In this document: piece by piece, positions 37,178 to 40,421 of the stretch
How positions within the stretch are numbered: the stretch's first letter is position 1
Layout of the letters: each line of letters begins with the position of its first letter
NCBI GenBank assembly: GCA_023269855.1
Contig: JAGDWP010000056.1
Coordinates: forward strand, 1 to 41,498
DNA length: 41,498 bases
Source of the DNA: Nitrososphaerales archaeon
Lineage (GTDB): Archaea > Thermoproteota > Nitrososphaeria_A > Caldarchaeales > Wolframiiraptoraceae
Reading direction: 5' to 3'
Made by a program: the position numbers and the translations under genes
Notes under the pieces: generated by a model
Seen by the model: the letters and a program-made list of their open reading frames with translations, nothing else
Told to the model about the DNA's origin: nothing
Databases searched by the model: none

Positions 37178-37702
37178 TTGAGTAACTTGAACGAGATCGA
37201 CTTTGACACAACTCTTGCATGCAGGTTCTATCATGAACCGATAGAGTTTAAAGAATTATCACCATATTTAGCTAGGAATGGCTGGATTGTTATGGAAAGA
37301 AAATTAGAGAAAGACGGAGTTGTCATTGAATATACTGCAAAGAGCATAGACGGATTAGAAATCCTTTTTTCACTAAAGAATAAAAGAGCCTTCCCAGATT
37401 TTAAAACTATTGAAAACCTTTTTAAGACATTACTAAATTATTTTTGGTATATCGACGTATATCACTGTTTCAGAAACTTAGATGTAGTTACCGTCGCTGA
37501 AAAGATTGGCTTAGATCTTGGAACGTCCAAAATAAGAAGAATAAAACTTGGTAGAATAGAAGTTTCAATCGAAGGATACAAGTTGACTGGTAAACTTATA
37601 GTTAGCTACAGAGTCGGTTTGAGAGAAGTGGATGATGTGAAGAAGATTTATTCAAAGCTTCTATACAAAATCTTAACTGTTAAAGGTGTGGAAAATGAGT
37701 GA
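37178..37702 (+). CDS. Hypothetical protein, first gene of the crenactin operon (positional arcadin candidate)
   Basis: 174 aa with a TTG start. The start is about 26 nt downstream of the TATA-like AAATATATT (37148-37156), which suggests a leaderless mRNA. Its stop (37700-37702) overlaps the crenactin ATG (ATGAGTGA). I recognise no family motif. The internal ATG (MERKLEK...) is an alternative start. Confidence 0.55.
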   Translation: MSNLNEIDFDTTLACRFYHEPIEFKELSPYLARNGWIVMERKLEKDGVVIEYTAKSIDGLEILFSLKNKRAFPDFKTIENLFKTLLNYFWYIDVYHCFRNLDVVTVAEKIGLDLGTSKIRRIKLGRIEVSIEGYKLTGKLIVSYRVGLREVDDVKKIYSKLLYKILTVKGVENE

Positions 37703-38963
37703 AGAATACAAGAGGTCCCATGTGTTTGGTATGGATTACGGTACAGGCGACTTCAAGTATGGGCCGATAACAATAGGTGAAGTACCCGAAGTAATTGAGA
37801 GCAGAGGATACTTCATTGAGAGAAGCTCTATTATGTCCAGGATTATGGGTGTTGATAGAGAAGTCGTAGTCGGTAAAGATCTACCCCTCTTCCTAGAATC
37901 GAGAGAGGATGTTGCTGAGAGATTGGTATATCCTATGAAGAACGGGATAGTAGAGAGAAACGATGTTAGAGCATGGCAAGTAATAAAAGAATTAACTAAC
38001 TATGCTCTACAAAGTTTTACACTGGACGACCCAGACTTTAAAGGATTCTACGTTGTCGCAAGTCTAGCAGTCGTTGCTCCCAGATACATGTATGAGCAGT
38101 TATTTGATATTTTTGGAGAATTGAATGCTGAGAAGATGCTTGTTAGAGCTGCAACGATAATTCCTCAGCCTTTAGCTGTAGCTATTGCGCATAAGACTCC
38201 AACATGCGTAGTTGTCGAGTCTGGTCACGGGAACACTCAGGTATGCCCAATCTCAATGTACCCTATAAGAAATGCAGTTGTAGCTCTAAATCGAGGTGGA
38301 AGTGCTGCAAATACTTTAACATCTGAGATTCTTAAAGATGCTGGATATGGAGATCTAGCCAAAGAAGAGAAGCTTGTTAGAAGAGTTAAAGAGCAGATTG
38401 GTCTCCTACCCAAGAGACTTGAAGACTCGATAGACTATGCTAGGAGGAATCCTGAAAAAGTAAAGACTGAGATAAGGATCGAGGGGACTAGGATAAAGAT
38501 AGATCTAGGAGAAGAAAGCTGGACGAGGTTTCTAATAGGTGAATATGCTTTTAATCCTGGGCACGAGATATTCCAAAGCTACTTTAAGAGAGGTATGCCT
38601 AGACCAGGCGATGTCAAAATCGGAGATACATACTTCTATGGAATGACAGATCTCTCAGAAGCTATAATTGAAGCAGTTGAGAAATGCTCTGTAGAACTCC
38701 AACCTCACCTCTACTCTCGGATTATTCTGTCTGGAGGAAACTTTAATTGGAATGCTCCTAAGGGTTTAGAAGGAATAGCTGTTACTTCGGATGAAAAAAT
38801 TAGGTATATGTTGAAAGAGAAGGGTATAGAAAATGTTCAAGCAATCGTTGCTAGAGAACCTACATACTCTGTCTGGAGAGGCTGCATAGTATATGGTTAT
38901 GCTGTCCCATACGATTTTAAGTGGAAATGGGAGAGAATGGAGGGGTGGCTTAACTATGCGTAG
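37695..38963 (+). CDS. cren-1: Crenactin (archaeal actin homologue)
   Basis: An actin/HSP70 fold with crenactin-like blocks along its whole length: 'FGMDYGTGDFKYGPIT', 'VYPMKNGIV', 'WQVIKELTNYAL', 'IIPQPLAVAIA', 'VVVESGHGNTQVCPI', 'ALNRGGSAANT', 'WTRFLIGEYAFNP', 'IILSGGNFNW', 'PTYSVWRGCIVYGYA'. The ATG at 37695 is preferred over the GTG at 37686. Confidence 0.88.
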   Translation: MSEEYKRSHVFGMDYGTGDFKYGPITIGEVPEVIESRGYFIERSSIMSRIMGVDREVVVGKDLPLFLESREDVAERLVYPMKNGIVERNDVRAWQVIKELTNYALQSFTLDDPDFKGFYVVASLAVVAPRYMYEQLFDIFGELNAEKMLVRAATIIPQPLAVAIAHKTPTCVVVESGHGNTQVCPISMYPIRNAVVALNRGGSAANTLTSEILKDAGYGDLAKEEKLVRRVKEQIGLLPKRLEDSIDYARRNPEKVKTEIRIEGTRIKIDLGEESWTRFLIGEYAFNPGHEIFQSYFKRGMPRPGDVKIGDTYFYGMTDLSEAIIEAVEKCSVELQPHLYSRIILSGGNFNWNAPKGLEGIAVTSDEKIRYMLKEKGIENVQAIVAREPTYSVWRGCIVYGYAVPYDFKWKWERMEGWLNYA

Positions 38964-39633
38964 GAGACCGACGCCAGAAGACATAATCTCAACCCTCTTG
39001 ATGGAAGAAGGATTCTACGAGGTTTCAAGAAATACTGAATCAACATGGTTGGATAACCAGATAATTCTATCCGACGGTAAACTACAGATAGTTGTAAATA
39101 TTCTATCCGAAGACTCATGTAATTCAAAGTCTATCATTCATGAAGCCTTGATTGAGACACAGAAACTCCAAAGCAAATACGATGGAGTAATCATTGCAGT
39201 ACCTAGAAGATACTCGAAAATTGTTGATGAAAGCTTACTACTCAAGTATGGTATCGGTCTGATAATATACGACATGATGGGCGCGGAGGAAGTCCTTCCT
39301 CCTAAGATAAACATTAATAGGAAAGAGAAGATACAAAACACTCAATATAGTATTGAGAAAAGCTCAATCACAGAGATTGCTATTCTCAAGTCTGAGATAG
39401 CCAAGATAATGAGAATGCTTGAAGAGATGGAGGCTAGATTAGATAGATTAGAGAAAGAACAGAGAATACTGGCAAGCAAGATAATCGAATTAGAAAGAAC
39501 AAATTCTTCTAAAGATACTGAGCAAGAATTGGTTAAAGTAACAATGAGCAAGCTTCATTCTAACAGTAATGATAACCTCCCAAGCTATCTCAAGGATAAT
39601 CCATGGCTAGAAATTCTTTCAAAAAGAGTGTAG
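38956..39633 (+). CDS. Arcadin-2-like protein (globular N-domain, coiled coil, short C-terminal tail); assignment by position and architecture only
   Basis: The ATG at 38956 overlaps the crenactin stop by 8 nt. 225 aa. A heptad-rich segment 'ITEIAILKSEIAKIMRMLEEMEARLDRLEKEQRILASKIIELER' spans approx. nt 39370-39504. A polar linker and then an amphipathic C-terminus 'LPSYLKDNPWLEILSKRV' follow. Confidence 0.6.
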   Translation: MRRRPTPEDIISTLLMEEGFYEVSRNTESTWLDNQIILSDGKLQIVVNILSEDSCNSKSIIHEALIETQKLQSKYDGVIIAVPRRYSKIVDESLLLKYGIGLIIYDMMGAEEVLPPKININRKEKIQNTQYSIEKSSITEIAILKSEIAKIMRMLEEMEARLDRLEKEQRILASKIIELERTNSSKDTEQELVKVTMSKLHSNSNDNLPSYLKDNPWLEILSKRV

Positions 39634-40421
39634 ATAAATTGAAGATAATTGTCCTAGGTTCAGGGTCAATTATTCCGACGAAAAATAGATTCTCAACATC
39701 CTTCTTCATAGAATATTCCGGAGGAAGGATACTTCTAGACATAGGTCCGGGAACAATAGAGAAATTAAGACGGCTAGATATTCGACCCGATTCTATTGAT
39801 AGACTGTTTATAACTCATTTTCACCTAGATCATACCTTGGATCTACCGGTGTTGATAAAAGTTAGGATGTTTAATGAGTTTGGAGGTCCTAATCCCAGTC
39901 CTCGAACACTTAACGTTTACGGTCCTACAGGTCTTAAAAACTTTATAGATAAATTAATTTCTCATGAAGGAGTATACAGTTATCTTTCTGAGATGATGCG
40001 TAACCTAGATTACTTGAAAATCCATGAAGTAGGAGAAGGACGGGTAGAGGAATTAGAGAATCTCCGGGTTTATTCCGTATCTGTCGAGCATTATAATGGG
40101 GTTGCATATAGATTTGAACTAGATAATGTTACCATAGCTTACTCTGGAGATACAGTATATGATGAAAGAATGTTGAAGCTAGCAGAAGGTGTAGATATCC
40201 TTATTCATGAATGTTCATTCCCCAAAGAATCGATATTAGGTAAGCATACTTCAGATGAAGATCTAATAAATATAGGTGAAAGAACGAAACCGAAGATACT
40301 CATAGTGTCCCACTTATACCCGGTATGGGAAGGGAGAGAGAAGCAGCTTGAAGATAAACTCAGGAAAGAGATTGGATGCAAAGTCTACGTTGTAAAAGAC
40401 ATGGATACTTTATACGTCTGA
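39603..40421 (+). CDS. MBL-fold metallo-hydrolase (RNase Z/ElaC-like short form)
   Basis: Contains 'IIVLGSGS', the metal motif 'ITHFHLDHTLDLP', 'YSGDT', and 'HECSF'. The ATG at 39603 gives a 31-nt overlap with the upstream gene. The in-frame TTG at 39639 would give none. Confidence 0.8.
   Translation: MARNSFKKSVDKLKIIVLGSGSIIPTKNRFSTSFFIEYSGGRILLDIGPGTIEKLRRLDIRPDSIDRLFITHFHLDHTLDLPVLIKVRMFNEFGGPNPSPRTLNVYGPTGLKNFIDKLISHEGVYSYLSEMMRNLDYLKIHEVGEGRVEELENLRVYSVSVEHYNGVAYRFELDNVTIAYSGDTVYDERMLKLAEGVDILIHECSFPKESILGKHTSDEDLINIGERTKPKILIVSHLYPVWEGREKQLEDKLRKEIGCKVYVVKDMDTLYV

Follow-up and report, generated by a model that had tools for sequence, protein, structure and literature searches.

Here, we report that a 41,498-nucleotide (nt) stretch of DNA from a Nitrososphaerales archaeon (contig JAGDWP010000056.1 of assembly GCA_023269855.1; hereafter, the window) carries, directly after its crenactin gene, a gene whose product is identified by sequence comparisons as a true, if remote, relative of arcadin-2. 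Among prokaryotic proteins, crenactin counts as one of the nearest relatives of eukaryotic F-actin. To our knowledge, no crenactin regulator other than arcadin-2 has a demonstrated mechanism. We consider it very probable that this Caldarchaeales gene, from a lineage near Candidatus Geocrenenecus, is an arcadin-2 orthologue that is co-transcribed and translationally coupled with crenactin. An initial annotation of the window had proposed a functional analogue of arcadin-2. This proposal is upheld and can be strengthened from analogue to homologue on four grounds: a profile-profile alignment, a match to the NCBIfam arcadin-2 model, the order of the predicted fold elements, and the position of the gene after crenactin.

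The crenactin gene and the start of the downstream partner

The gene of interest is an intact open reading frame (ORF) in a 1.64-Mb assembly that is 95.9% complete, and close homologues of its product carry the database label “hypothetical protein.” Its ATG lies within AACTATGCGTAG, just downstream of the purine run GAGGGGTGG, and the frame overlaps the end of the crenactin gene (stop codon at 38961-38963) by 8 nt. A longer in-frame alternative begins at 38893. We place the start at 38956 because all 22 of 22 homologues begin at the same MRRRP-type start.

The identity of the upstream gene is supported by matches to the Pyrobaculum calidifontis crenactin chains in the PDB (4CJ7, 5LY3, and 5MW1; E 8.6e-115, residues 4-421), by the Pfam Actin model (E 3.9e-14), and by a score of 573.6 bits on the NCBIfam crenactin model NF053560, for which the cut-off of 630 was not reached. 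Mutation of V339/E340 in P. calidifontis crenactin abolishes polymerisation (PMC5173319), and this segment is retained in the window crenactin as SVELQ. The crenactin frame can also be opened at an in-frame GTG at 37686, giving 425 amino acids (aa), and a public gene call (P0027) is 413 aa. All close relatives are 422 aa, and the true start is likely the ATG at 37695 (MSEEYK...) and neither the GTG nor the shorter database call. We scanned genome contigs with a crenactin alignment and kept the 80 best loci, Pyrobaculum not being among them. Within this set, the nearest public crenactin loci are those of Candidatus Geocrenenecus (crenactin identity 88-85%) and Wolframiiraptor, which places the source organism in the Caldarchaeales (Aigarchaeota).

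Homology to the characterized arcadin-2

The arcadin-2 of P. calidifontis (WP_011850311.1) has the next accession after crenactin (WP_011850310.1), and its active peptide, R187 to R203, comprises the last 17 residues, with contacts made by a Trp and other hydrophobic residues (PMC5173319). A search of 120 genomes in the class of locus L068 returned matches located directly after crenactin genes, one of them at locus L085. The crenactin of this locus is 100% identical to PDB 4CJ7 over all 432 aa, which identifies the locus as that of P. calidifontis. The gene that follows encodes 203 aa and ends in RGGIGENEWVKILRSKR, with R at positions 187 and 203 and W at 195. Based on this agreement in length, both arginines, and the Trp with the published description (PMC5173319), we take it to be P. 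calidifontis arcadin-2. It scores 298.6 bits on NCBIfam model NF053561 (“Rkd2, arcadin-2”; cut-off 290) and was the only protein to exceed that cut-off in the NCBIfam search made.

With this reference in hand, we compared an alignment of the window family (23 proteins, 43-86% identical overall) with one of 16 Thermoproteales arcadin-2 sequences. The two are homologous over their N-terminal domains (N-domains) by hhalign, with 94.7% probability and an E-value of 5.8e-8. The initial annotation had staked its proposal partly on detectable homology in profile-profile searches, and this is where it was found. NF053561 is the only NCBIfam model that matches the window protein. The match (E 2.4e-5) is colinear and spans model positions 26-195 of 196, and the window protein is the best match to this model in the source genome. 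The BLASTP alignment with P. calidifontis arcadin-2 is weak but colinear to the extreme C-terminus.

Sequences intermediate between the two groups also exist. A search of 1.84 billion representatives with the window-family profile recovered 197 clusters, nearly all of which end in PSF/Y-xx-DNPW-xx-LS-x-R. One of these, P0288, was reached at E 2e-6, and P0296, a full-length member of its cluster, matches P. calidifontis arcadin-2 at E 3.9e-22. By sequence similarity, P0288 and P0296 link the window family to the Thermoproteales proteins.

A conserved C-terminal peptide

Izore et al. described arcadin-2 proteins as consisting of a core domain, a non-conserved unstructured linker, and a small conserved C-terminal helix (PMC5173319). 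The last residues of the window protein, LPSYLKDNPWLEILSKRV, are the counterpart of that helix. Ten positions are invariant in the 23-protein alignment (P209, S210, L212, D214, N215, P216, W217, I220, L221, and S222), giving the window-family motif LPSYL-x-DNPW-xx-ILS-x-R, and N215 and W217 are invariant over all 92 family members collected, Thermoproteales included. The initial annotation had suggested alignment with arcadin-2 orthologues, and in this alignment the C-terminal stretch falls on the mapped R187-R203 peptide, with the Asn, the Trp, and the hydrophobic residues kept. Aligned on the Trp (W217/W195), residues 212-225 of the window protein match residues 190-203 of the P. calidifontis protein, pairing L212/I190, L218/V196, I220/I198, and L221/L199, followed by a basic tail in both proteins. 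Asp/Glu and Asn/Asn also pair ahead of the Trp, so the shared core reads [DE]N-x-W-[VL]-x-IL. When the whole 1.64-Mb source genome was scanned for the C-terminal pattern [DEN]N-x-W-[VLI]-x-[ILV]L, only one of 7,882 stop-to-stop frames of at least 50 aa carried it.

The peptide is more strongly conserved outside the Thermoproteales than within. Thermoproteales proteins have [DE]NEWV[KR][IL]LR and lack the LPSF segment; other lineages keep the longer LPS[FY] form. The Thermoproteales peptide is a shortened, derived form, and this may explain why NF053561 misses the wider family.

Three further proteins, P0246 (297 aa), P0271 (388 aa), and P0275 (405 aa), end in ...LPSF/Y-xx-DNPW-xx-L... behind longer and different N-terminal regions. 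JGI lists P0246 as an ArsR-family regulator, P0246 and P0271 have HTH_20 matches below the Pfam threshold, and the contigs of all three are only ~1.7-1.9 kb. The peptide that would bind crenactin may be portable between proteins.

Gene neighbourhoods of crenactin

Synteny was counted over the 75 recovered public loci with an intact crenactin frame, which span the TACK (Thaumarchaeota, Aigarchaeota, Crenarchaeota, and Korarchaeota) archaea. An arcadin-2-like gene adjoins crenactin in 67 of these. It lies directly downstream in 57 of the 75, from Geocrenenecus, Wolframiiraptor, Bathyarchaeia, Brockarchaeota, Culexmicrobium, a Methanomethylicota metagenome-assembled genome (MAG), and Thermoprotei MAGs. 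In another 10, including Caldarchaeum, Terraquivivens, and Pelearchaeum, it is directly upstream, and this pair is rearranged while staying adjacent. The upstream-type loci are L036, L039, L048, L049, L052, L060, and L063-L066; their frames are ~221-246 aa from stop to stop and end in ...PSF-xx-[DE]NPW-xx-LS/A-x-K.

No arcadin-2-like gene was found at the remaining eight loci, namely L045, where little DNA follows crenactin, and seven Calditenuaceae-type loci (L067, L069, L070, L073, L074, L077, and L080), none of which has such a gene within 5 kb. Calditenuaceae-type genomes either encode arcadin-2 elsewhere or have a different partner in its place. A conserved 347-aa gene begins 7 nt after crenactin in four of these seven loci.

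The initial annotation had described arcadin-2 as a protein of about 200 aa encoded beside crenactin, which agrees with the 203-aa P. calidifontis gene. The same position, directly after crenactin, is found in P. calidifontis and in 24 other Thermoproteia loci. The order of the P. calidifontis arcade is arcadin-1, crenactin, arcadin-2, a 56-aa ORF, and arcadin-4. Among loci L084-L105, 16 of 16 aligned Thermoproteales arcadin-2 genes begin with GTG, within ~30 nt of the crenactin stop.

Several observations weigh against the assignment of the window protein to arcadin-2. The hhalign match spans the N-domain only. The score on NF053561 (24.1 bits) is far under the equivalog cut-off of 290, and this model also matches weakly (E up to 1) in five of 14 control genomes. 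The window protein and P. calidifontis arcadin-2 do not reach significance in a pairwise BLASTP comparison (E 0.12, 21% identity), and the window peptide includes an additional conserved LPSY stretch and carries Pro, not Glu, before the Trp. The weak BLAST result, together with Pfam matches that are just generic coiled-coil hits below threshold, would also fit an unrelated coiled-coil protein that resembles arcadin-2 by chance. We regard such a coincidence as extremely unlikely, given that the profile-profile homology falls in the non-coiled N-domain, that the gene is adjacent to crenactin in 67/75 loci, and that the C-terminal motif is both unique in the source genome and common to the mapped peptide.

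With a score below the NF053561 cut-off, the window protein counts as a remote homologue and falls outside the NCBI “equivalog” label; homology is not thereby excluded. That P. calidifontis arcadin-2 alone passed suggests a model tuned to Thermoproteales. Pfam finds no match in P. calidifontis arcadin-2 either and has no model for the family. A phmmer search with the window protein against PDB sequences gave no match, as expected: the deposited arcadin-2 is a 17-mer, and chains of fewer than 20 residues are not indexed.

Predicted domain architecture

An AlphaFold2 model of the window protein, built from a 92-sequence alignment, has a mean predicted local distance difference test (pLDDT) score of 84.9 and bears out all three features described in the initial annotation (Table 1). 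The N-terminal globular region is present, as an alpha/beta domain of ~115 aa in the model and not the ~135 aa first estimated. The heptad-like helix of ~45 aa lies in a longer predicted helix: between residues 138 and 181, one heptad register places hydrophobic residues at 11 of its 12 a/d positions, and other registers reach at most 7/12 or 7/13. The linker and terminal stretch are likewise present. The model shows no helix over residues 194-209, with pLDDT under 50 at 196-204, and in the 23-protein alignment the columns of the linker are without conservation; short helices are then predicted at 210-213 and 216-223.

The P. calidifontis arcadin-2 model (pLDDT 89.6) has the same order of secondary structure. 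Both proteins are predicted to consist of an alpha-beta-beta-beta-alpha-beta-alpha-beta-beta domain, homologous between the two, followed by a long helix, a disordered linker, and a short C-terminal helix. Overall identity is ~20%, and the helix is longer in the window protein (73 vs. 51 residues).

Table 1. Features of the crenactin–arcadin-2 locus of the window, and the arcadin-1 homologue on another contig of the same genome.
Feature	Coordinates	Strand	Remarks
174-aa gene	37178..37702	+	First of operon; TTG start; overlaps crenactin start
Crenactin gene	37695..38963	+	422 aa from ATG 37695; PDB, Pfam, and NCBIfam matches
Probable arcadin-2 orthologue	38956..39633	+	225 aa + stop; intact ORF; 8-nt overlap with crenactin
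N-terminal alpha/beta domain, residues 1-115	38956..39300	+	Predicted; AlphaFold2 pLDDT 85-96
Long helix, residues 121-193	39316..39534	+	Predicted; DSSP on AlphaFold2 model
Coiled-coil core, six heptads, residues 141-179	39376-39492	+	Predicted; pLDDT 92-98 at 141-180
Ser/Asn/Asp-rich linker, residues 194-207	39535..39576	+	Predicted disordered; variable
C-terminal peptide, residues 208-225	39577..39630	+	Candidate crenactin-groove-binding helix
Metallo-beta-lactamase-fold gene	39603-40421	+	Lactamase_B_2, E 1e-13; follows arcadin-2 gene
Arcadin-1 homologue, 114 aa	contig C22, locus L116:1486-1827	-	PDB 5LY5 match

A predicted nuclease-like fold in the N-domain

Foldseek searches with the N-domain of the window model matched 3DNX, the XisH structures 2OKF and 2INB, and PaqCI (8EM1) at E 1e-4 to 5e-4. 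Structural alignment with VIA-align gave Z-scores of 10.4 for XisH 2OKF (root-mean-square deviation 3.6, 108 aligned residues), 9.9 for 3DNX, and 9.5 for PaqCI, and the model of P. calidifontis arcadin-2 has the same top PDB matches. The N-domains of both proteins are thus predicted to adopt a PD-(D/E)XK nuclease-like (XisH-like) fold, with its alpha-beta-beta-beta-alpha-beta core. We found no description of such a fold for the arcadin-2 N-domain in the literature searched.

The fold matches, which take in XisH, PaqCI, EcoT38I, Bax1, and EndoMS, raise the question of an active PD-(D/E)XK nuclease, for example resolvase-like, that is recruited to crenactin. This seems very unlikely, as no canonical D...(D/E)xK triad appears to be conserved. 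About 60% of family members have D40. In strand 3, ~47% carry K or R at the position where the window protein has Asn48, with no acidic residue two before it, and the only N-domain positions that are invariant or nearly so across 92 members are G99, G101, and A81. We therefore favour a binding or oligomerisation module that lacks activity over an enzyme. The XisH family itself has no detectable sequence similarity to arcadin-2, in which the domain shows no evident catalytic motif and is extended by a coiled coil and a tail that binds actin. The N-domain probably has a second role.

Proposed mechanism

In vitro, P. calidifontis arcadin-2 binds crenactin with a dissociation constant (Kd) of 31 nM. 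Either the protein or its peptide alone depolymerises filaments and binds monomers 1:1, with no part other than the C-terminus interacting with crenactin (PMC5173319). By homology, we infer that the window protein would bind crenactin and would depolymerise its filaments. The coiled coil would most likely bring the protein together as a dimer or higher oligomer, the oligomeric state that we propose for it, with two or more peptides on flexible tethers. A flexible linker of ~15 residues would present the C-terminal helix (residues 208-225, centred on N215, W217, L218, I220, and L221), which would enter the hydrophobic groove that lies between crenactin subdomains IA and IIA. This groove normally takes the D-loop of the next subunit, so the helix would compete with longitudinal contacts. 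The outcome would be sequestered monomers or depolymerised filaments, as for P. calidifontis arcadin-2.

A different use of the same parts is conceivable. In a ParR-like adaptor, the C-terminal helix would dock on crenactin and a dimeric N-domain would bind DNA or cargo, coupling filaments to the chromosome or division site. ParR occupies the same groove in the same orientation (Izore et al., PMC5173319), and arcadin-2 has been reported to localise between segregated nucleoids (PMC9723716; PMC5840170). The nuclease-like N-domain, predicted for the window protein as well as for P. calidifontis arcadin-2, and the occurrence of the C-terminal peptide behind different N-terminal regions with weak HTH_20 matches (P0246 and P0271), also point in this direction. 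We nevertheless judge the adaptor to be unlikely. The P. calidifontis protein and peptide depolymerise filaments and bind monomers 1:1 through the C-terminus as the only interacting part; DNA binding by arcadin-2 has not been reported; the helix-turn-helix (HTH) matches lie under the Pfam thresholds and come from contigs of only ~1-2 kb; and a fold match is no proof of function. An extension of this idea is offered only as a speculation with rather low odds of being right: beyond a thymosin-like sequestering role, arcadin-2 would be a catalytically degenerate, dimeric XisH-like domain that binds DNA or cargo and is flexibly tethered to a portable groove-binding peptide, making it an archaeal counterpart of the ParR/ParM type. 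In this speculation, the portable peptide (LPSF-xx-DNPW-xx-ILS-x-R), conserved across TACK archaea, would occasionally be attached to other, HTH-like N-terminal modules. Monomer sequestration or filament depolymerisation, as in P. calidifontis, remains the favoured role.

Comparison with known systems

The closest comparison is P. calidifontis arcadin-2 itself (Rkd2; NF053561; peptide in PDB 5LY3), which, like the window protein, is ~200 aa and encoded directly after crenactin. The two peptides differ in that the window form has the additional invariant LPS[YF] and DNPW, where P. calidifontis has ENEW. In ParR/ParM (PDB 4A62), a short C-terminal helix of a dimer encoded by a partner gene inserts into a hydrophobic groove, as proposed here for the window protein. 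ParR, however, binds DNA through a ribbon-helix-helix domain, acts on filament ends by stabilising or capturing them, and shares no sequence similarity with arcadin-2. Thymosin beta-4 and WH2-type sequesterers also place a short amphipathic helix in the actin subdomain 1/3 groove and block polymerisation, but with the opposite helix orientation (PMC5173319). These proteins are eukaryotic, have no sequence relationship to arcadin-2, and lack a nuclease-like domain and coiled coil.

Neighbouring genes and other arcadins

The first gene of the operon encodes a 174-aa protein and holds its place before crenactin only in loci L001-L020 (Geocrenenecus, Wolframiiraptor, and related MAGs). Searches of Pfam, NCBIfam, and the PDB (5LY5 included) with the single sequence or with a profile gave no match. 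The protein is not detectably arcadin-1, as neither phmmer nor a profile finds similarity to 5LY5 or to P. calidifontis arcadin-1. Invariant residues of the protein include C15, W90, Y91, R99, and R145. The 174-aa gene product is a lineage-specific third partner. On the other side, a metallo-beta-lactamase-fold gene follows arcadin-2 and may be a fourth cistron; its first ATG sits 31 nt within the arcadin-2 gene.

Elsewhere in the genome, a gene encodes a 114-aa protein that, along almost all of its length, is similar to PDB 5LY5 (P. aerophilum arcadin-1; E 8.3e-5). This gene is unlinked to the crenactin operon; arcadin-1 is therefore encoded apart from crenactin in the source organism. The search for arcadin-4 in the source genome returned just generic SMC/Rad50 P-loop matches (<=38 bits) and no orthologue. 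An arcadin-1 homologue without a detected arcadin-4 orthologue is consistent with what has been reported for Caldarchaeales (PMC9723716). The arrangement thus differs from that of P. calidifontis, where arcadin-3 and arcadin-4 stand in the place of the metallo-beta-lactamase-fold gene; in the window no arcadin-3 or arcadin-4 gene comes after arcadin-2, arcadin-1 is unlinked, and the lineage-specific 174-aa gene occupies the upstream slot.

Significance

Genes for crenactin, arcadin-1, and arcadin-2 had already been reported from Caldarchaeales, and an arcadin-2 gene from marine Culexarchaeia (PMC9723716). The present result confidently assigns a divergent protein to a known family and does not reveal a new kind of system; to this we make two modest additions, a family-wide motif and a predicted fold for the N-domain. 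The motif and profile can be used to annotate proteins now labelled “hypothetical,” for which the NCBIfam model is too narrow and no Pfam model exists. Thermoproteales arcadin-2 emerges as part of a far wider family whose genes are nearly always linked to that of crenactin and which is seen in Caldarchaeales, Bathyarchaeia, Brockarchaeota, Culexarchaeia, a Methanomethylicota MAG, and Thermoprotei MAGs. This distribution supports an ancient origin of actin regulation via groove-binding peptides, and the predicted nuclease-like fold provides a testable lead on roles of arcadin-2 besides monomer sequestration.

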